Below, one piece after another: positions 24,695 to 39,086 of a stretch of DNA of 64,000 nt. Numbering within the stretch: position 1 is the first letter of the stretch; the number at the start of each line of letters is the position of its first letter. The notes beneath the pieces are model-generated. The model was not told the origin of the DNA and did no database searches. It was given only the letters and a program-made list of their open reading frames with translations. Made by a program: the position numbers and the translations under genes. This stretch comes from Trichodelitschia bisporula. Lineage: Eukaryota. The stretch spans positions 1,246,174 to 1,310,173 of the forward strand of contig ML996691.1 of assembly GCA_010356995.1 (NCBI GenBank), given 5' to 3'.

Positions 24695-26142
24695 ATGTCT
24701 ACATCAAATTTTTTCCGTGGCGGATCGGATGCCCGCGAGCCATGTGGGCGAGAGTCGAGACGTCAATCGGCAATCACTGCATTCCATCGCATTCCATCAC
24801 ATTACATTTAACCCCAATTATGCTAGACCAGCGGTTGTGGAGTATAAACAGCACATTCCGGTACGTCTGGACTCTAGACGCGAGGATAAAGTCACTGAAG
24901 GTAGACATCGCCTAGCGGGCCGGAGATTCGAAAGCACCGAACAGCTTTTTGTCGTTGTCCACCCGTCGACACTCCGGCTACGCTCCTGCGCGCCTAGGAA
25001 CAGCCCTAGCGGCTGGCTGCTAACCGCCGGTTCCCGACGACTGCTGGTTCCAGAGCCGCAAATACATGTCTGATATCGACGGGACCGAGCCGCCCGATGG
25101 CACATGAAACGCTCAACTGAACAGACGGCGAAAGAACAGTGTGCCTAGTTCTAGTGTGCTCTGATGTCTGGATTATCAAAGACTTGGCTGGAATATTGAA
25201 CACCAGCAATCCTTCCGCACTAGTTATGGCGCATGTAAGGTTTGCCGCCCGTTCCGAGACGCCCTCCTCGTGTGCGACCCCACAGGACGATCAACTGCAG
25301 GGTCTTCCATAGGCGCGCTAGGAGACTGGTCCGGAGTAATTGGCGAAGTGCTGTTGGTTTTCCTGGTCTTCCTCTGATGCGGGTATGCACCAGTGTGAAA
25401 CGACCCTGGACTGAAAGGGACTGGTGGAGACCAGCAGGCGGCTACAACGCGAGAGTCATTCATGGCCATCCCGCGCGGGTGAAGTACCTAACTTGCTCAT
25501 GAGGTTTCTTTATTACCCCACGACTTCGAGGTAACCGAGTCAGATGTATGCAACAATCGTACGTTTAGTAGGCCCGGATTTGCTTCAGGTGAGGTTAACC
25601 GAACCCTCGTACCGTCCTGTACCCGACTTTTCCTTGGTGGTGGGCTAGACGAGATGGCTTTCTGCTGTGAACGCTTATGCCCATTAACATCTCAAACGAC
25701 AACACTCCTGGAAGCTTTCGATGACCCGATTCATTGATGCCTGTCAAATTATGGCTGTTAATGGCTGTTGAGCGGTTAGCTCGAAGCGATGCGACGTCGG
25801 CAGGTATGACGGCACCAGACGACGTCGACTTGTTCACGTGATATTACACCACGATACCTGCCAATGATGCAGCAATCAAGCGCAGCTCCAGCTTCCTTTC
25901 GAATCGTGACCCGTCAAAACCTTTCCACTGAAAACTCCGCATCGTGCCCCAGCCAAGCGAAATCGTGGCGTCGAACCCAATCTCACCAACCATCCCCCCG
26001 CGCTGATTGGCCCACCTCTCACCTCCACTCCAACCACCACCCGACAACCATCACCACACTTCGCAACCCGAATTCCCATCCCCACCCTCAATTCCCCCTC
26101 AACCCCCCCTCCATTCCCCTCAATTTCCTATCAAACCCAACA

Positions 26143-27028
26143 ATGTCCCTCCTCCTCCGCCGCACCACCGCGAGCCGCAGCATCCTCGCTCGCCAATTCC
26201 ACACCTCCCCCCGCACCCTCGTCAAAATCGGCGACCGCGTGCCCTCCATCGAAGTCTACGAGGACAGTCCGGGCAACACCGTGAACCTAGCCAAGGAGCT
26301 CCAGGGCAAAGGCCTTATCATCGGTGTCCCGGCTGCGTATAGTAAGTCAATTGCCTCTCAATTGCATCCCTAGCTCCGGCTTGTGATCTGTCCCGGCCAT
26401 CAATTACATCGGGATGCTATCCGCGCTGAACGCTACCCGACCCCGTTGGCTATTAGACCCCTGTCCGTGCTTCAATCGCGGGTCCAGCACGAGCTGCCCG
26501 GACCTAAGTGAACGTGTACTGACCACCCGACCCCAGGCCCCGCATGCTCCGCCTCGCACATCCCCGGGTACATCAACAGCGCCAAACTCTCCTCCGCGGG
26601 CCCAGTGTTCGTCGTCTCTGTCAACGACGCCTTCGTGTAAGCCCCATTTTCCCAATTCCCCTCCCCCCAAATTCCCCTCCCCTCCTCTCCAATCCCCCCA
26701 CCCCCCTCCCCCCAAACCCAACTAACACCCCTTAGCATGAAAGCCTGGGGCAAGGACCTAGACCCCAGCGGCAAGAGCGGAATCCGCTTCGTCGCCGACC
26801 CCGCAGGCAAGTTCACCAAGGCGCTGGATCTGGAGTTCGACGGCAAAGCGATCTTTGGGAATGATCGGAGTAAGCGGTATGCGCTTGTGATTGAGGGGGG
26901 AAAGGTTAAGAGCGCGTTTGTGGAGCCGGATAATACGGGGTTGGAGGGTGAGTTTTTGTGGGTTTGAGATGGGTGAGGGTGAGCTGACGGGGTTTACAGT
27001 TTCCAAGGCGGAGAATGTGCTTGGTTAA
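26143..27028 (+). CDS. Prx5/Ahp1-type peroxiredoxin with mitochondrial-type presequence, 4 exons
   Basis: Arg/Ser-rich leader MSLLLRRTTASRSILARQFHTS; GVPAAYSPACSASHIPGY (peroxidatic Cys); SVNDAFVMKAW; RSKRYAL. Introns 26342-26536, about 26637-26736 and 26948-26999. Confidence 0.93.
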
Positions 27029-27222
27029 GTGCCTCCCCGCGCGTGGGAGGTTCGACTTGGGTGTGCATTCGAAGCCAGTGGGGGAAAAAGGAGACTTCAA
27101 GCATTCTAGCACGGGATATTTCAGAGCTCAATAGATCTTTGATGTTAGGGCATCAGAACATGAGGAAGTCTGACCCCTGACTAGGTTTAGCCTCGAAATC
27201 CGTCAAATGGAACCCTCAGTAC

Positions 27223-30200
27223 CTAAGCTTCCTCCTCATCGTACTCCACCTTTTCTGTCGTGATACACCCATCCCTGGCTTCGTAAATCACCCTCTCCCG
27301 TCGCATCTTCCCGTCGCTCTCCCTTATCACCCGAAGTACCGGCCTGACTTCGGTGCACATCTGTACCCTTCCCGCGGTGCGTACGGCTGCTTCAGGCGGA
27401 ATTCCCAACGCGCCATTCGAAGCAGGGAGGACCCTCTCCGACCGTTCCATCGGCGAGAGATAGGAAGCTCCCGCTGCGGTTTCGTCGAGCAGCTTTGCGC
27501 AGTCGTCGAGGAAGACCAGGCTGGGACTCCGGGCCATCGGGGTATGGCCGCTGAGCTGCGGATGCGCCTCCTCCTGCTCATCATCCGAGTCCTCGATGGA
27601 CCTGCGCTTCCTTGCGCTCCTTTCCACCCCGCTCACCCACTCCACACCCACCCCTCTCCCCCCGTACGCGTCCCAATCTCCTCCATACCCGTCCCCGCAC
27701 CCCTCCCTCCCCCCTCCTCCCAAACCTCCCTCACCGCACCCCCCAACGCAAGCGTAACCGACCTCGCAACCCCATTCCCCACAATCCCCCAACTGCCGCC
27801 CCATGCCCCCACCACAACCTTGTGGTCCAAGTACCCCTGCACGCGCCTCACCTCCCCCACCGTGAGGCACCTGCTCTCCCCCCAATGCACCCTAATCCCC
27901 GCCTTCGAACCCGTCGGATCACTGAACGTCGTAATCGTCGGCGCCAGCCCCTCGCCTTTCACCCTCTGATACGCATGACTCGGCCGTAAACTCGCCCTTG
28001 CTTCAAACTCCTCCAATTTCGGCCCGAGAACACCGACCTGGCTGGCGCGTTTTAGGTTCATGCCTACCGGCACCGCAGCAATGGCGACTCGTTTTATAGG
28101 CCTGAGGATGCTGACGAGCCGGTGATCCGGCTGCGCCGCGCACACGCCCACATGCCCGTCGCCCAGGAAGGGCAAGTCCGCACACACAGCCGCGGGACTC
28201 ACGTGGCCGAACGGTGTGAGCTCGAACTTGCGCTGCACGTACGGGGTCCCATCCGGCGCACGATCTAGATTACTCGCCCGGGTGCCAAAGCCAGGCGGGT
28301 GAGCATGCGTCGACTGCGGTGGGCGCAGCGGCGGGCCCCCCGGCGCCGCGGCCGCAATAAATAGCCGGGTGCGAGACTGTGGCGTGCCGTGCGACTAGGC
28401 GTCCAGGGCGAAGGGGTGCAGCTGGTAGCCCATCGCCACCAGGGCGCCCATGAAAGTGCCGAAAAGCCCGGCCGCGGCGCGAGAGCGCGTGAGGCTGGGG
28501 ACGTTTTCGAGGAGGGCGTAGCGCGGGGTGTAGGTTGCGATAAACGCGGCGATGGAGGCGAGTTTACTGGCGTTCAGGACGGAGCGGCGGGAGTGCGGGC
28601 TTGGTTGCAGCAGACTGAAGGCCTGGCACGGGGAGCCCGCGGAGATAAAGTCCACAGCGCCGACGGGGGGGACGAGGGGGGAGGATTCGCCGCGCAGGGA
28701 CCGGTGAGGAGGTCGTCTACTGAGCCGTAGAAGATGCTGATGGAGGGGTTGAGCCGGTTGGCGAGCAGCGTGTGCACGGATTGGAGATCCCATTTACAAG
28801 CCCAGTGCACGTCGATCGCGCCGCCTTCTTCGAGACCCCGGTCGAGGTTGCCGCCGCCGGAAAGGAGGGATAGGGCGGCGAGTTTGGGGTGCGCCGGGGA
28901 GGGGCGTGGGATCCCAGCCTTGGAGGAGGGGGAGGGACTCGTGGGGCGTGAGGGGCTGGAGACGCTTCCCGGCGGCGGGGTCGATGCGGGTTGTGATGTA
29001 GAAGCAGTCGACCTGCCCGCCGCGATCATAGGGCGTTGGGATGAGCTTCTCGGAGACGGCTTGCGGTGTGTATGTCCGGATGTGGCACTTTCGGACTATA
29101 GCGTTGGCTGGCAAGTTCAGTATGTTTCCAGTCCAGACGAGCTCGTTTGGAGCGGCATTTCGGTCTCCGCAATTGCGGTTTCGGCGTAGTAGTTGGCAAA
29201 TTTTGATGTTCCCGTCTGCAGAGTTGTACACTACCACCGCCGGCTCGAGAACGGTGTTGTTTGCGAATGGCTTGACCAATACAGCAGTACCAGGAGGATA
29301 TACGGTGGTATTGTCATCCTGGTGATTGTCTTCCTGGCAGGAAGAGTGAAAGTCTTCTTTCTGCAAGGTCCTGAACGACTTTTCCTCGGCACGGTACGTC
29401 TGCCGAACAAACCAGTCATGTTCCGGAACCTCCTTTGGTGACCAAACCACATTGGTTTTCCCAAGAACATCAGCGAGCAGAAAGTCCTCGGATCCGCAGT
29501 TGCAATGGTCCGACATGAAGAGCTCGTTCTGAAGCGGGTAATTCTCCCCCAACGTCATCGCACCGGCGCGATACATCCAAGTGACCTGAAGGTACTGTTC
29601 TCCCAGTTTGTTCGGATAAATCTTGCGAACGTACGCCTCCCACACCTCCATCCCGCCCACCCAAACCGACTTCTCATCGCGGCTGACCAGGACCATATCT
29701 CCTTCACGGATCCTGCCGAAAGTTTCAGGCTTCGGGGCCGTAAATGATTCCCTTGTAACGAACGGTCGGAAACCCATGGCCTTCATTCGCACGCGCTGAG
29801 CAGCGAGGACTCTTTCGCCTGCTTGACATGCAAAACCGGGGCGAACGGCATCTTCTTGAAAAACTCGTACACAAAGGGCGTGACGATTGTGACTGCTGGC
29901 AAGTCCTTACTTCTAGTGGGAGGTTGCCGCTCCACTGCCCTGAGCTTCTTCGCGTCGACCTCGCACCAGACGAAGCGCTTCCGCAACCGATCGCCGATGT
30001 TCGTGGCTTCTTTCCACAGATAATCGAAATGTGCCGCGACGGCAGGGCGGAAGTCCCAAATCGTCATTATGTTCAACCACTTCTGGAAGGGTTCTGAGTT
30101 GCCGTATCGCTCGACCAGCCATTCGCGGAAATGCGTCCGGAAATTACCAAGTTCGACGCTTTTGTAGGCAATCAGGTAGTCCACAAAATGCTTTCCAAAT

Positions 30201-30966
30201 GTCGCGATCCAGAGGAAGGGTTCGTAATAACAAGCGTATTCGGAAGCCAGGCGACCCAGACGAAACCAGATCCGGGACCTGAAGCGGTGTTGCACGGTGT
30301 ACGACTGGATCCCGATATCAGCCGCCGTGGGACAGAGGCTGTCGTAACCGTTGACGGAGAACACGTTGAATGGAAATCCGCACACACGTCGCTCCTCGCT
30401 GCCCACGTGTAGTGCTCCATCGAATAAGAATTATTTGCACCCGGTTCCAATACTGAGGTTGCGCAGGGAGATGAGTTCGCCGTTGCGGTTCTCCAGGTCG
30501 CTGGTTCCCGGGAGGTAGATAGCGAAGTCTTTGAGGTCAAAATCAATGAAGTCTTCCGAAGGGTCGTATCCAGAATAGCTGGAATGGTCCTTCTCCGCTT
30601 GATGTCGGCACCACACTTCCAAGAGCTCAACCAATGCTTGCTTTTCGGGAATGACAGGAAGGTGGTGACTCCAACCGTGATAGGCGGACTTGGGATACTG
30701 CAGTTCCGACCGTTGGAGGCCGATAGCCCGCTCGCGGATGCCTGGTCCTGAATATTGCTTCTTCTGTTTCTTAGCCGGGCGTTTGACTCAAACTCTGACT
30801 CTGACTCAATAGGCGAGTGATCCAACTCTGTGTACACGATGAAGGAATCTAGATCCGACTCGACCGTGGCCCTTGCCCGTCGGCAAACCGATCGCTGCCG
30901 AACAGTGGCATTACGAGCGCGAATTTGTGCCGGGGTCAGAAGTGGCTGATCCGAATCCGAGTCCAT
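27223..30966 (-). pseudogene. dim-2: DIM-2-type DNA (cytosine-5) methyltransferase, disrupted
   Basis: In order: N-terminal replication-foci-like region (FLFDG..YYEPFLWIATFGKHFVDYL), BAH domains (NELFMSDHCNC, PNELVWT), motif I SGGGNLDRGLE, motif IV AGSPCQ, VI ENV, VIII PQSRTR, IX RCLTVGEVRRVQG, X GNGV. Stops at 30431-30433 and 28395-28397; frameshifts near 30790, 29790, 28895, 28703 and about 27670, without usable introns. Confidence 0.88.
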
Positions 30967-32351
30967 GATGATGGCTTCCAACTCTGGTTTGATATCCGGG
31001 ATTGGTGTTGAATCAAAAAATCATAGATCTGGCCGCGGCTGTGCAATTGGGTGCTCTGTATCCAATGCGGTGATCGAAGCCGATTTCATTCGCTGGATCG
31101 GTGCCGGTGTTACACATTCTGCTCGGCCGGTTAGCTTCAGTGATACCGCGCATGGAAATCCACCTACCGTGATCCGGCACGCTCATCGGCTGAGCACGAA
31201 GCGAGAAGTTCGCGAAGGGAAATGATCGAAAGGAAAAAGGGCAGGACATTGGTAGAAATGCGCTCGAGAGAACTTAAGTGCATGTACGTCGCGTGCAAGT
31301 ACCCGAAACCATAGAGGATTCCGTAGAAGCAAGGGGAATAGAGTAAGGTTATGGACGCCTGAAAACAAATCGACGCTCCTGGATGCATTCTGTAGGAGAA
31401 GACCAAAGGATTGCCTTGATTTTATGTACAAGCCCGTGCGATTATATCTCGGGGCCAAGAAGCAATGCTGTGGGCGCTCACAGATAAAGCAGGTGCGTTT
31501 CCAGGCAGGTACGCTGCAGATGTACAAGCCGGCACGCGCACACCAGCCATTTGACGAACGCTAAAAGGATGCAGTTGAGGAAAAGCACGCATGTAGAATA
31601 GAAGCCAAGGAGGGCAGAGGTCGAACGACGATATATAGTTGCAAAGCAACGGCCAGTTGTCCCAGAGGACACGGTACGAGGTACCGTCTGAGGTGGTGTT
31701 TAGCGTCAAAGTCCACAAGTGGAATGTCCGGATCACGCTCACGTGCCAAAACACGCCAAGTCACAAGGCGATCGTCCGCGGCTGGCATGGGAGGAAATCT
31801 GGTGACAGGTCGTAAGTCCTGCTGAGCGCATGTGGCTTCCCTGTGTGCTGTAGATAACAGTCATTTGCTGCCGTCGACCGCCCTGGACAACGACTGAACA
31901 TCCGGGGACATGTTTTACACATAGTTTGACCACAAGTTTGTCGGAGAGGTGAAAAGCGTCATTACAGCGGACGGGATGAGCCCGAACCAACGCACCGCAC
32001 GTTGCGGCGTAACCGTGTCATTCCTAGAAAGAATCCCATAGTCCCGTTGAATCTAGTAGTTGCATGTGCCGCAACTAGCAATGCAATTTGAAGTTCCTGC
32101 CACCCATATGCAGTCTGAGAAAGAAGCCTGGGTTCGAGGACGAATTGTACCTTTGACCCGACGGTGCCATATCATGTACCCCGTAACGCCACACCAGTCA
32201 TTCTCGAGAAGAGCCCTTGTCCAGGAAATCGCCCAGCTTTCAACTTTGTCTCCGAAACTCCAGCGCCTGGCTCCGCAAACTTGACCATCTTTCTGATTCC
32301 GTGCAGCGAGTGCGGACCCACAGTCTTCACCTCCGGGGCCCGCGCCTCATG

Positions 32352-32964
32352 CTAATCGATACCATGCTGCTGTTTGAGGGCTTCTAAATTGGCACGGCGC
32401 TGCTCGAGGTCCTCTTTTGACTTGGCCATCTTCTCTGGCTGGTGGTATAATACTGTCGAGTGTCAGCAGGGAACGGGCGGAAGGACGCAGAACGGGCGCA
32501 ACACGTACCCACGAGGTAGCGGTTCTGGAAGTTGAAGCCGTTTAGCTTATCGCAGGCCTGTTTGGCATCCATGACATCTTCGTAGACGACAAACGCGGTG
32601 CCCTTGGTGTTGTTGGCAATGCCCTGACGGATTTGGCTGCAAGACTCATCAGCATGGCCATCAAATGGAGGCGTAGTATCCATCGAGTTCACATACCGGA
32701 TAGGGCCGAACTTTCCAAAGAGATCGAAGAGATCCTCGGGAGTAACGTTGTAGCTGGATGGGCATCAGTCGCGCACGATGGAAAAGGTAGAGCGAAAGGC
32801 TCCATTCATCTCGGTGGCATCGTCATACCTCAGGTTCTTTACGAATAGAGCTCTGTGAGGTTAAGTCAGCATGTTGACGGGTCGCGTGGCCGGATGCCCA
32901 AGGCAGACGGGAAAGGGAGGACGAACCGATTGACTTCTGGGGCAAGTTTACCACCGCGACTCAT
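32352..32964 (-). CDS. SF3B6: Pre-mRNA branch-site protein p14 (SF3b14/SF3B6), 5 exons
   Basis: Spliced: [100 protein letters not shown] domain; four canonical introns. Confidence 0.95.
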
Positions 32965-34126
32965 ATCTTGGCTAAATCGGTGGAGCGAATCTTTTTCTCT
33001 GCGGACGTTGAAGACGCGGGTTGCGAAGCGGGGGGGTTGGTGTCGATGGATTGGGTGGGTGAGATCGGGGCGAGGGGGGTGGTGTTGAGAGGCGTGGTGG
33101 AGGTCTGCCGGCAGTGCAGGCGGAGGCAACGGAGATCACGGTCACAGAAGCCCGCGAGTGGACGATTTGCAGGCGCACGTGACCGGGTGGAGCGGAGGTG
33201 GGCTGCGTCTGTTTGCGGAGGGCGGACGACTGGTCGATCTTGGGTTCAAGCCTTCACGACTGTGCGACGGGAAGAGTTGCTACACCGGAACGCGTTCCTT
33301 AGAGACTGTTATCGACGAAAAATGAGGAAAGGACAGAGAGAAGCAGAAGGCGATGATGTATGCGCATCGACAAGATTTCAACGTTGGAAGTAGTTTGACG
33401 ATGTGGTGGTGACTGCAGCCGTTATTTCCCCTCCCCAACGGAGTGAATAAACTTTATCCTCAGGCAAGAAACTGCAGCAGATCAGGCAGCAACTGCTTCT
33501 TGGTGAGAGAGAGCCGTGGATGCCTGAGAGAGCATCGAGGGAGGGACGAAAGCGACGGGGAAGGACAGAAACGACTGCAGCCATGGCGTCTCAATCCACA
33601 CTGCAACAAGAAAAATCAAGCAATAACCGTCTTGTGTATCACCATCGCTACCTCTATCTATCATCGTCTTCTTGTGCAGCCCTCGCTGTTCCTTTGCGCG
33701 TCGAGTTCTTCGCGCCCTCGCGTTGCTGGGGCCTCGCTTATACTCAGTGTCGGTGCCTGCGGTGACTTCTGCGGGCTCTGCGGGCTCCTCTCTCTCTCCG
33801 TCTCGTCGACTCCCCGCCAGCAACTCCCCTCTCGCCCTGCCTCCTCTACCTAACCTACCTACCTACCCCCCCCCCAATAACACCACCACCACTCTCTCAT
33901 CTCAACCATCCCACGATAACTGCAGTAACTCCTTTCACATCTGACTCTTCCAGCGCCTCTAGATGCTTAACGCTCTTCTCTGCCACTTCATCCACCTCTC
34001 CCGTCTCGACTGGATGGGCCGCAAGCGGTGCTGAACTGCCGCCGACCCCCCTCCTCCCCCCGGCGGCATCTTCTCTATCGTCCCACTTCACTCGTCCGCG
34101 CCATCTCTTCTGCAACTCTCACTACA

Positions 34127-37100
34127 ATGAGCTGCAACTCATTCCGCAAGGGATTAGTGGATCCTAATGCGCGCACAAGATCCCCGCCACGCGCATCCGA
34201 CGCCGTTGAGCTGTTGCCCGATTCCCTCTTCGTGAAAAACATCGCCGAGCGACTGAAGACTAGTCGTCCCAACTCCGTTCCGTTCCTCGTCGCCAACCAT
34301 ATCGCGCCTCACGCCCAAAGTCGCAAAAATAACAAGAGAACAGATACAGTCCGACATCGCGTCGCGAATCCGCAGGCGCCGCGACACTCGCACTCTCACT
34401 CCGCGAGCGCCAACATGCACATACCCCCTCAGTCGCCCATCGACGCCCTTGCGTCTGTTGCCGTTCAAGTCACAAGTCCCACCTTCCACAACCACCTCAT
34501 CTTGGATCATGAAGCGCATGGTTTGCCGGCGCCGAACACACATGCCTCACTGCGTTGGGACGCCCCTCACCAGGATGTCGGCGCGCGCGGATTTGGCACG
34601 GAAGGGCGGCCGGCGAAGCGTGCCCGCTCCGAGATGCTCCCATCACCGCAGCAGCAGTCGCCAACGTTCGTTGACGCGAACGTGCGCCCTTCGACGAGTT
34701 ACAACATGTCCTTCGGTTGGAGCTACAACGTGGAGCAGTCCATCGACCGTGGCCATCGTCTCGGCGCGTCGCCGGCGCTGGCGCAGAGCCTGAATTTCGC
34801 AGAGCCTCCGATCTTGGACGAGAAGCGCATGAGCGACGCAGAGCTGTTACTTGGCTTCTCAAGAGGTAGCAGCCATTCATTGACAACTGCGTCGGGTTTC
34901 GGGCAGCAGCGCATCGGCCCTCCAGAGGAACATCATTCGACTCCTGTCCGGCCTTACGAGAGGCATGACAATGCTCGCAATCTAGCTTTCTTGACTTCTC
35001 CCGTCATACCTACGCCGAGTAAGCATATGCCGATGTTGCGGAATCCTCCGGCGGCTGCCGTTGCAGCAAATCCTCACCCGCTGCATTTCGATCATCTGTC
35101 CCCGAAGGCCGCGATGCAGACGCATACCCCTCCCGATGATCTGGGTATCTCCGGTCTTCAGCCGAGTCCAGTGGCAGATGTGGCGTCCCTGCACTATGTG
35201 CCAACGATGGAAGAGGTGGTCGCCGAAACCAAACAGGAAGAAGCAAACGGGCTGCATGTGGACAACGCTGTTACCCTCCCCACGACATCGCACATGGATG
35301 AACGTTATATCGGCATGAGAGTTCCGACCAGTGGTGGAGATGCGCAGTTTCATTCTCCACAGAGTTTACCTGCCGAAATGGACGATTCTGCCACCGCTCA
35401 CAACGGCGTTGTAGGAGCTCAAGCCTTTGCCAAGCAGCAAACTACAATTCCTGAGCACCATATGCTTCGAGCGCCTACTTCGAGCAATAGTCGGCGTCAG
35501 AGCACTGCTTCCAAACCAACCTTCTCCGTCTCTGACTTACACCCATCTACTCCACGTTCTCACTCTCTGCCCCCATCAACAATGGCTGACAACAAGCCCC
35601 CTACCCCCCAGAACGAGAAGGAGTCTACCGAAACCACGGTGCCTGCTAAAGGTTTCACCGACGAGGATACTCGGTGTGCTGGGTGCAATTTCTCTCCGGA
35701 TTCTCTGTCTGATGAACACATCGACTGGTTGAGTTGCGACGGCTGTAACGGATGGTATCACGCGGCCTGCGCCGGATACTCAGCGCGCGAGACCCGGCGC
35801 ATCGATAAGTTCTTCTGCCGGGTGTGCAAGCCCATTCATGGGGCAACAACATGTACGTATTCCGATCTCAAAGTAACACTCGCTAACAAGACCCAGTCCT
35901 TCGGAAGTCGACTCGTGTGCATACCTCAGTGGACTATGCTGGCCTCAATGAGGGGGTGTATCGGACCGGCGAGGAGAACCCGGAGCACCACTACATCCCA
36001 CCCCTGAAGCGTGGAGACCTAGAATTCCTCCCGGAAACCTTCCCGCGTATGAGTCCGGAGATGGTTACTGCCGAGTATTTCGAGAAGTGCTTGAGTATGA
36101 CTGAACCGGTCGTCATCCCTGCGGCGCTTAATCCTCGTCCGCCGCCTGTCGGCAAAGTCCCTTTCATGTACCCCGGGCGCGAGAACGACATGACCCCTGA
36201 AGATAACATTCCGGAGACGAATGTGGAATACGAGGTGGTTCCTGACGATGGTCAAGACGGCCTGGACATGGTCATCCCGCAAGGACTGACCGTTCGCGAC
36301 GTCGTCAAACTTTGCAGCCCGGACTACCCTGTCGAGGTCATCGACGTCAAGTCTCAGGAGGGCGACACCAAAAAGAAGTGGACGCTGCAGAAATGGGCCG
36401 ACTACTACGAATCGACGGGAGAGAAAGCTATCCGCAACGTCATCAGCCTCGAAGTCTCCCAGATGCCGTTAGGACGTCTGATCCGCCGCCCGAAGGTTGT
36501 CCGGGACATGGACCTGCAGGACGCTGTATGGCCGAAAAGTGACAAGAGCGCAAACTCCGTGGGCTTCTACTGCCTGATGTCCGTTGCAGACAGCTACACA
36601 GACTTCCACATCGACTTTGGTGGCTCATCAGTGTACTACCACATCCTTCGCGGCTCCAAGGTGTTCTTTTTCATCCCACCCACGAAGGCCAACTTGAAGA
36701 CATACGAGAAATGGTGCTGCTCGCCTGCGCAGAACTTCACGTGGCTTCCCGATCATACCCATGAGTGTTATCGAGTCGATTTGTCCGCAGGTGACACCAT
36801 GCTTATCCCCTCTGGATGGATCCACGCTGTTTGGACGCCGGAAAACAGCCTGGTCATCGGAGGCAACTTTCTCACCCGGCTTCACTACAGCATGCAACTT
36901 CGCGTCGTTGAGGTGGAACGGGCTTGCCGAACCGTAGACAGGTACAAGTACCCGCATTTCCAGAAGGTGCAGTGGTATGCCGTCTTGCAGTACCTGGAGA
37001 CGGACCCGCTTCCTGTAAGTGTGAGGCAGCAGTTCTATGAGGGCAAGAAGTTCAAGCGAGAGGTGCCGGTGTACCGTCTGTTCAACAGCTTCGGGCACAA

Positions 37101-39086
37101 TTCCGAGCCGGGCCCGGAGCAATACCACGCGCGGTACTATCCTAAGGCCGAGTTGGACGGTCTTCCGGACCTTGTTAGTTACATCTTCCGGACCGTCATG
37201 ATCTACATGAACCGCCTCGATGGCATTACCCAGCGGGCGCGCGACGCCGTCATCAAAAACATTCCCAAAGGCAAGGGCGATCCACTGGAAATTGCTAAGA
37301 ACTTCGCCATGTGGGCTGCCTGGAAGCGGGGCAATGAAGATATTCCGCAGTGGGCGCATCCAGACGGGGTACTTCCTGGAAAGGCCGATGCTGGCCAGAA
37401 GAAGATTAGCGCTGCCGAGATGAAAAAGTTGGAACGCGCGTCAGCTATCGATGCGAGTCGGATTCCTGAGCGTCAGTCGGCTCGTCTGTCCCTGGCTATG
37501 GAGAAGGAAAAGAGCGAAATAGCTGGTTCTCGCCAGTCGTCTCCTGCACCCGCTAGCACGCCGAAGACGTCCGTTCTTGGGCCGCGTCGCACGGCATGCG
37601 ATGTCTGCCGCAAGCGCAAGATGCGCTGCAAGCACATGGATCCCAGCGCCCCCACTAGCGGAGCGAAACTGTCCATGGACGAGTCTCCTGGATCCGCGCA
37701 ACGCTCGAGCAAGGTAATGGTTGCTGTCCTCATTCCGTCGTCTCCCTCTCTTACCGTAAAGCCGGCGACCGTCCAGGCGCCACTTGCAGAGACCGTAGCA
37801 CCCAACAATGGGACTACCCCGAACGCGGACAGCCAAGAGTCCAAAAAGGGTCGCAACAAGGCCTGCTCGGACTGCCGCAAATCAAAGGTAAGCCTTGAAC
37901 TCCGGGTTGAAGTTATTTCCCACTTTTGTATCTGACATGTCGCTAGCGACGCTGCATCCATGATGAGAACGGAAAAGTTGACCCTGTGAAGAAAAGCGAA
38001 CCGGTCGTTCCTCGTGGCTCGACGAAGCGGAAACAGCCTGGGGATGCAAGCACGCCCAGCAGCGCCAATAAGCGGGTCAAGAAGGAAGCCCCCAACTCGG
38101 CATCCAGCCTCCCTAGCCTCGGACATGACGCCATTCCGCTCGTCGTAGATGACCAGACTTCCGGCCACGAATACCGTGAGTCTTCCCTGGTCGGCGATGA
38201 CACTTTCATGGCCATGACGCCCACGCACTCGAACTCTATGCAGCGCCGCAAGTCGTCGTCAGCGAACGACCTGCAGCAACCACGTGAGGAAATGCCACCT
38301 GTGCTACAGACCGTCAACGATCCCTCCAACGGGCATCATGTGGTTGAAGAAACCAACGACATTGAAATGAAGGATGCGACACCTCCCAAAGCAACTCCTG
38401 AGCCCATCGATACAATCAAAGTGGCGCCTCGACGTGGCTCGGCACTGCGCCCTGGTGCGACGCCACAGGGTGCGAAAGACAAAGTGAGTACCCAAGGAGC
38501 GGACAAGGGGAACCGGTCACCAGCGACGTCGGCTCTCAGCGAACCACCGACTTCTCCTGTTTCGTACGCCAATGGCGTTTCTTTGGCTCTCCCCGCCAAA
38601 CGCCAGCGGAATCAATCTCTTACTTCGTCTGTTCTCAGCGATGCTCCAGTCGAGCAGTCTCCCAACGGCGTCGCGGAGCGGAGTTTGCAGCAGAACGGCC
38701 ATGACAGTGCAACGCCGACGCGCAGTCGGCAGTCATCACGCAACCCGAAAGCCGTAGAGCGCTTTACTGATATACAATCCGAGCATCCGACCGTACACTC
38801 CCCCGAAGCCTCTGCCCCTGCCGGCGCTGAGAATCCACGTCACTCGACTGTCGAGCAAGCAAAGAACCGACGGGCGTCTACTGGTCGTTCCAGCGCCCGT
38901 TCTTCTTCGAAGCTTGAGCAGGGTGCTAGGGCTCGGACTTCTCTGAGTGCCAAGGCTGAGATCAAGAAAGAGTCGGTTGCCGCGGATGCGCCACCTGTTG
39001 AGGAGACGGATGAGGAGAAGAGCTTGCGCGTAGCCATGATGCTGCAGCAAGCGGAGTTTGGGCTGCGGAGACGCGGCCGGGAATAG
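34127..39086 (+). CDS. JHD1: PHD + JmjC histone H3K36 demethylase (Jhd1/KDM2 family), 3 exons
   Basis: PHD (CAGC..WLSCDGCNGWYHAAC..FFCRVC); JmjC with TDFHIDFGGSSVYYH and IPSGWIHAV (HxD..H); NVISLEVS; two CxxCx6CxH motifs. Introns about 35853-35897 and 37888-37946. Start codon somewhat uncertain. Confidence 0.92.

Follow-up and report, generated by a model that had tools for sequence, protein, structure and literature searches.

Does the dim-2 locus of Trichodelitschia bisporula (Dothideomycetes, Phaeotrichales) still encode a DNA methyltransferase, or is it what remains of one? DIM-2 is the main heterochromatic 5-methylcytosine (5mC) methyltransferase in Neurospora crassa, and in the 64,000-nucleotide stretch of T. 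bisporula DNA analysed here (contig ML996691.1, positions 1,246,174 to 1,310,173; called the window below, all coordinates being positions in it) the pieces of one long gene of this kind occupy the minus strand from 30966 to 27223 and are distributed over three reading frames. An earlier note, made from the letters of this DNA alone, had read these pieces as a DIM-2 gene pseudogenised amid intact neighbours, and as a possible sign of a recent, independent loss of DIM-2-dependent methylation. Reading frames, alignments with homologs and contigs of public DNA and RNA runs indicate that the locus is very probably a transcribed unitary pseudogene of a DIM-2-class DNA cytosine-5 methyltransferase in the sequenced strain, and an active enzyme cannot be made from it.

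Identity of the gene and its lesions

Pfam matches and the location of the motifs revealed the order DUF7893, BAH and C5-methyltransferase with motifs I-X (Table 1), and the earlier note, too, had all domains and methyltransferase motifs present in order. An intact protein of 1404 amino acids from Aulographum hederae (P0003) matched most of the region in a tblastn search (E 1e-150, two pieces together). PF25423, PF00145 and PF01426 are present in most of the database relatives, some of which are without PF01426 or PF25423, and many of these relatives, retrieved in two protein searches with 19 and 56 matches, carry Dim-2 as the name given by their source; the closest one outside T. bisporula is 40% identical. 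Because the three families stand in this order, the Aulographum protein matches so strongly and the relatives possess the same three families, the locus is, judged by its sequence, a DIM-2-class gene by descent, though not a functional member of the class. Motifs I, IV, VI, VIII, IX and X were found at 28873-27759; for their numbers and for the catalytic role of the cysteine in GSPCQ we assume what is generally held for such enzymes. Motif I, motifs IV-VI (28637-28500) and motifs VIII-X (28379-27759) are not readable in one frame.

Base composition also varies along the gene, with a GC content of 0.61-0.70 in its final ~1.9 kb (27500-29150) as against 0.51-0.57 upstream. The coding strand shows a C-rich block at 28400-29150 (plus-strand skew +0.26 to +0.33) and is then strongly G-rich at 27500-27950 (skew to -0.60), the switch in skew beginning near the start of the catalytic domain.

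The breaks were placed by three-frame translations and an X-bridged read-through aligned with 18 homologs, phase being the coordinate modulo 3. Two in-frame stops, three firm frameshifts (L2, L3 and L4) and two probable ones (L0 and L6) were identified in this way, which agrees with the two stops and about five frameshifts counted in the earlier note, and both stops lie exactly where it had put them. L2, L3 and L4 are flanked on both sides by sequence that aligns with the homologs without any added length, and are therefore not introns on homology alone; the exact base of L2 cannot be fixed, both frames being open there. At the TAA of L1, 15 homologs display R (7), Q (2) or other residues (6), and the ancestral codon is thus not fixed. 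For three or four of the frame changes, the site is within or next to a run of C or G, and indels located mostly in G- or C-rich runs fit replication slippage.

The two remaining frame changes concern the ends of the gene. L0 separates the sole frame started by an ATG (..ESEFES) from the conserved frame (KRPAKKQKK..LQYPKSAYHGW), which has no ATG and is closed on its upstream side by a TGA at 30790-30788; homologs cannot be aligned with the N-terminal tail. L0 is probably a frameshift, the alternative being that a start codon was lost. At L6, the methyltransferase frame ends at a TGA (27635-27633) while an open tail frame of 222 codons continues to the last stop. This tail frame is coding-like in composition, with a GC content of 0.64, 0.49 and 0.71 at the first, second and third codon position (GC1, GC2 and GC3), and a BLASTP comparison of its residues from 27720-27226 with the 18 homologs gave no match to a homolog C-terminus (best E 0.44). 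L6 is probably a frameshift as well.

Transcript, copy number and age of the loss

Contigs of four public runs (X1-X4) were compared with positions 25800-32800. X1 and X2 are DNA runs flagged as a possible source of the window DNA, and their contigs exclude a consensus error but do not amount to a second sample. Runs X3 and X4, from a different sample, were treated as RNA because their contigs carry GT..AG joints. Such joints are found on the minus strand at 32453-32508, at 32637-32696 and in the 5' untranslated region (5'UTR) of the dim-2 transcript, and at three places in the plus-strand Redoxin gene (26342-26536, 26637-26735 and 26947-26998). The earlier note had named assembly errors, or a spliced or edited cDNA restoring one frame, as what would undo its claim. 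The lesions stand: the DNA contigs X1 (26639-32800) and X2 (26670-32800) showed 0 other letters and 0 gaps and carry all seven of them. No frame-restoring cDNA was seen in the RNA contigs X3 (27805-31118) and X4 (28098-31118), which are collinear, unspliced and identical to the DNA over L0-L5, six of the seven lesions, while the 5'UTR intron is spliced both in record 14 of X3 and in record 18 of X4. Positions 27628-27804 have no RNA contig cover, and L6 is confirmed in DNA only.

The course of events may be pictured as follows. An ancestral single-exon coding region, comprising an N-terminal tail, DUF7893, BAH and a DNMT1-like catalytic domain, would have been struck by two nonsense mutations and by three to five frameshifts of a single base each, most of them in homopolymer runs. 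Its promoter still fires and splicing of the 5'UTR intron continues, yielding an mRNA that carries every lesion within the RNA cover and that is untranslatable into enzyme, its longest product from the first ATG being predicted to consist of ~59 native residues followed by out-of-frame sequence. Because the mRNA carries the lesions, no ribosome can read motifs I, IV-VI and VIII-X in one frame.

An intact copy elsewhere, the other finding that the earlier note had held to speak against a loss, did not emerge among the annotated proteins of T. bisporula. Both protein searches returned a single protein of this species (1 of 19 and 1 of 56 matches), and this one, P0001 (NCBI 'S-adenosyl-L-methionine-dependent methyltransferase [Trichodelitschia bisporula]', 1008 amino acids), is derived from the dim-2 locus itself; a search with the catalytic piece also gave P0001 only, among 8000 candidates, a result uninformative on copy number. 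The proposal of an independent loss is supported, because the remnant is present here and homologs are intact in other Dothideomycetes, namely Aulographum and Hortaea, as found by protein search.

For the age of the loss, P0001 was omitted from the conserved-column alignment, being the model of the same locus. The consensus residue is kept in 108 of 127 highly conserved columns, and the GC3 of the remnant (0.56-0.86) is like that of the neighbours (0.60-0.79), with GC2 lowest, as in coding DNA; these features speak for a loss that would not be ancient and may be fairly young. There is no close sister genome for dating it, since the next best relative is only 40% identical. The genome measures 25.8 Mb, of which repeats make up 1.4%, and supplement files 1 and 12 of a 1,239-genome survey (PMC12543289) give it the score 'no_rip', which refers to repeat-induced point mutation (RIP). 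It is plausible that the loss followed a relaxed need in this repeat-poor genome without RIP, where DIM-2 would have had little left to methylate. The loss may extend to the lineage, beyond the one sequenced strain, and DIM-2-dependent 5mC would have disappeared with it.

Table 1. Features of the dim-2 locus, its lesions, the gaps of the public protein model P0001 and the transcript (window coordinates)
Feature	Coordinates	Strand	Evidence or remark
Very probable dim-2 pseudogene, whole coding remnant, ATG to last stop	27223..30966	-	frames, Pfam, tblastn
ATG of dim-2 remnant	30966-30964	-	
Last stop (TAG)	27225-27223	-	
DUF7893 domain (PF25423), typical of DIM-2 proteins	29954..30220	-	Pfam E 9.8e-28, residues 71-159 of window:29783-30430:-
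BAH domain (PF01426)	29370..29705	-	Pfam E 6.8e-08, residues 68-179 of window:28794-29906:-
DNA_methylase (PF00145)	on piece 28395-28793	-	Pfam E 1e-08
Motif I (LSLLSGGGNLDRGLEEGG)	28820..28873	-	out of frame with the sequence on both sides
Motif IV, GSPCQ with presumed catalytic Cys	28623..28637	-	alignment with homologs
Motif VIII, QSRTR	28365..28379	-	alignment with homologs
Motifs IX and X (RCLTVGEVRRVQGY .. GNGVARS)	27759..27872	-	several otherwise conserved residues substituted
L0, probable frameshift, one-base loss type, phase 0 to 1	30780..30795 (~30788)	-	adjoining an AAA run
L1, in-frame TAA preceding conserved FLFDG	30431..30433	-	frames and homolog alignment
L2, frameshift, one-base loss type, phase 1 to 2	29795..29830	-	between ..VLHVKQAKES and ..AAQRVRMKAMGF
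L3, frameshift, one-base gain type, phase 2 to 1	28895..28925	-	C4 runs; between ..LLQGWDPTP and PKLAALSLLSGGGN
L4, frameshift, one-base loss type, phase 1 to 2	28665..28700	-	C6/C7 runs; between ..GPCAANP and LVPPVGAVDFIS
L5, in-frame TAG, TGG to TAG, at Trp kept in 18/18 homologs	28395..28397	-	alignment
L6, probable frameshift, one-base loss type, phase 2 to 0	27636..27720	-	G-rich runs; DNA contigs only
P0001 gap 1, 167 nt	30912-30746	-	on lesion; good GTAATG donor
P0001 gap 2, 42 nt	30439-30398	-	on lesion
P0001 gap 3, 80 nt	29791-29712	-	on lesion
P0001 gap 4, 222 nt	28937-28716	-	removes L3 and entire motif I
P0001 gap 5, 45 nt	28439-28395	-	on lesion
P0001 gap 6, 161 nt	27758-27598	-	on lesion; outside RNA contig cover
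RNA contig X3 record 14	27805..31575	-	collinear except for the 5'UTR intron; 0 other letters, 0 gaps
5'UTR intron, 49-nt GT..AG	31119..31167	-	spliced in X3 and X4; joint 31118/31168, CT..AC on + strand

Competing readings and the public protein model

A transcript that is readily assembled in two RNA runs might have taken on a new, non-catalytic role, either as a non-coding RNA or, through an internal ATG, as the message of a BAH-only chromatin reader, and the 370-codon BAH frame (28794-29906) does possess ATG codons near its start. More than 1 kb, however, separates the ATG of this frame from the 5' end, with many other ATGs in between, and young pseudogenes are commonly transcribed. Nor was any sign of selection seen on the remnant; 19 of 127 conserved columns are changed in it, and six homologs at a comparable distance depart at 12-18 of 135-139. 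We regard such a role as improbable.

Were the public protein model right, the interruptions would be real introns and a 1008-residue methyltransferase would be made. The seven exons of P0001 agree letter for letter with the frames of the window, all six gaps between them have GT..AG ends, the first with a good donor, and the sixth lies outside the RNA contig cover. Against this stand the RNA contigs of two runs, in which five of the six gaps are read through without splicing, although the same contig splices the 5'UTR intron; moreover, two gaps are just 42 and 45 nucleotides long, and the gaps excise residues that align with homologs, including the entire motif I and the region of the invariant Trp. 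The fourth gap resets the frame to that holding after L4. Because X3 and X4 are unspliced and identical to the DNA, the RNA carries L0-L5 and the dominant transcript retains the first five model introns; for six of the seven lesions, neither an assembly error nor a real intron can be the explanation. It is thus most unlikely that the model describes a real protein; P0001 is an annotation artefact, in which each lesion is bridged by an invented intron. The entry represents a pseudogene stitched together by false introns, one of them deleting the cofactor-binding motif I, and proteome-based surveys of the presence or absence of DNA-methylation genes would misscore T. bisporula, and probably other species likewise. 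With this protein model in existence, a homology survey would probably count T. bisporula as Dim2-positive.

A further reading is that duplication exposed the gene to RIP and so destroyed it, the route first suggested for dim2 of Zymoseptoria tritici; Möller 2021 (PMC8016269) describes the inactivation of that gene by RIP together with CpA-specific C-to-T changes. The change of TGG to TAG at L5 corresponds to C-to-T at CpA on the opposite strand, and the TAA of L1 could derive from CAA. Yet the GC content of 0.51-0.70 across the gene reveals no AT-rich drift, most of the lesions are indels, a type that RIP does not make, the locus and its flanks lie in one DNA contig, and the genome bears the no_rip score mentioned above (PMC12543289); two substitutions are, besides, too few for assigning a mutational process. 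A RIP-inactivated gene was rejected on composition and on the predominance of indels, and has very little left in its favour.

Errors of sequencing or assembly in GC-rich homopolymers, with an intact gene in the organism, would suit those frame changes that lie in or beside C or G runs. Separate de Bruijn contigs from two DNA and two RNA runs, however, agree at all covered lesions, the assembly is based on Illumina HiSeq libraries and AllPaths-LG (PMC7082219, Supplementary Table 5), and two of the lesions are base substitutions. As the earlier note had argued against a generic homopolymer error, the neighbouring genes stay in frame: six flanking open frames, 13.7 kb in total, span 26 homopolymer runs of at least six bases unbroken, compared with 7 such runs in 3.7 kb of the dim-2 region, and HIS7 keeps its frame through G runs of 7, 9, 6, 7 and 6 bases. 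The contig comparison does expose disagreement where it is real, as evidenced by an internal control, the C-rich tract at 26639-26727, where the DNA contigs break and short variant contigs occur. Sequence error can hardly be credited any longer. Scarcely a chance is left for rescue by recoding, meaning stage-specific adenosine-to-inosine (A-to-I) editing of the stops plus ribosomal frameshifting: a UAG at a Trp codon is a classic target of restorative editing (UAG to UGG), reported from sexual tissue of Fusarium and Neurospora, but the accessible parts of these papers (PMC10776026, PMC4817773, PMC11156358) describe it for Sordariomycetes and not for Dothideomycetes, three to five frameshifts are beyond repair by editing, and the RNA contigs, whatever growth stage their sample represents, contain no altered letters.

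Several points weigh against the reading of the locus as a unitary pseudogene. The gene might naturally end at the stop at 27633, as the tail frame is without homolog support and L6 lies outside the RNA contig cover; at L0, a start codon could have been lost instead of a frameshift having occurred. An unannotated intact copy may yet exist, as the searches covered annotated proteins. The excess of changed conserved columns in the remnant is too small to demonstrate relaxed selection. X1 and X2 are not an independent sample, and DNA and RNA may both derive from one strain; finally, contigs drop rare variants, and a minor spliced or edited isoform would stay invisible in them.

Neighbouring genes and comparison with known systems

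The locus is flanked by genes for a carboxylesterase, an Ariadne-type E3 ligase, eIF2B-epsilon (a frame of 653 codons) and an HSF-type factor, and further by genes for Redoxin, an RRM protein, a PHD/JmjC protein, HIS7 (513 codons), a C2H2 zinc-finger protein (695) and an Mcp5-PH protein (1440 codons); the single open frames among them range from 513 to 1440 codons. Their Pfam scan covered 129 + 12 of the 187 stop-to-stop frames with 110 or more codons, together with two frames of the Redoxin gene; the remaining frames belong to the dim-2 locus itself (15) or lie past 50309 (31). On the plus strand at 33971-37932, a PHD-finger frame (678 codons) overlaps a JmjC/JHD frame (682 codons) in a different phase at 35887-36004, and several GT..AG candidates of 59-65 nucleotides would join the two; they are probably parts of a single histone-demethylase gene, interrupted by an ordinary intron and situated 3 kb away from the dim-2 remnant.

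The C-rich tract at 26639-26727 lies in the second intron of the Redoxin gene and is the site of the sole DNA-contig break in the 7 kb compared, with a poly-C loose end, which suggests length variation or read trouble. An RNA contig of the plus-strand Redoxin gene (26999-27627) reaches ~400 nucleotides into the minus-strand dim-2 tail frame; as contigs carry no strand, this may reflect two convergent transcripts that overlap, or the merging of both strands in the contigs. On the other side, one X4 contig (28098-32636) runs from the dim-2 transcript through the intergenic DNA into the upstream gene of the RRM protein; X3 has no cover at 31650-31883, and read-through transcription or some DNA in run X4 could account for it.

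Among the 56 matches of the whole-protein search, the best-scoring intact relatives are largely lichen-forming fungi and Eurotiales (Paecilomyces, Trichophyton). The accessible part of the survey PMC12543289, by comparison, calls Dim2 'nearly absent' in Eurotiomycetes, which is at odds with the relatives matched here. The same source, which includes T. bisporula among its 1,239 genomes, states that Dim2 was repeatedly lost or pseudogenised across Ascomycota. No paper tying T. bisporula to DNA methyltransferases was found, the literature naming the species being taxonomic or general-genomic by title or abstract. The locus is a new instance of the known recurrent Dim2 loss in Ascomycota, a data point rather than a principle.

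Being a saprobic Dothideomycete whose genome is very poor in repeats and bears no RIP signature, T. bisporula offers a study system for the expected absence of DIM-2-type 5mC. A bolder proposal, which we put forward with considerable reserve and consider rather doubtful, is that the species constitutes a natural and recent DIM-2 null, with a dead gene still transcribed in a repeat-poor (1.4%) genome without RIP, and that it would become a second wild polymorphic DIM-2 system should an intact allele survive in other isolates or in sister Phaeotrichales, as is the case in Z. tritici. If true, it would allow the effects of DIM-2 methylation on mutation spectra and transposon control to be tested in a saprobe, outside a pathogen, and homology-based surveys would overcount Dim2-positive fungi, since gene callers splice around lesions of this sort.

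Three known systems may be compared with the locus. With DIM-2 of N. crassa and its ascomycete orthologs, which are DNMT1-related proteins with BAH domains, it shares the order DUF7893, BAH and C5-methyltransferase motifs I-X; unlike in N. crassa, the frame in T. bisporula is broken in five to seven places and no enzyme is possible. Edited 'pseudogenes' of Fusarium graminearum, as described in the accessible part of PMC10776026, likewise display a premature UAG at a conserved Trp in a transcribed gene, but they carry only editable stops, whereas dim-2 of T. bisporula has frameshifts in addition. A further parallel is dim2 of Z. tritici, also from a Dothideomycete, which according to the portions available of PMC8016269 was recently inactivated, left a recognisable remnant and is kept intact in relatives. 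There, the path led through gene amplification and RIP, with many C-to-T changes and polymorphism among isolates, while in T. bisporula one locus was found, with a high GC content and mainly one-base indels plus point stops.

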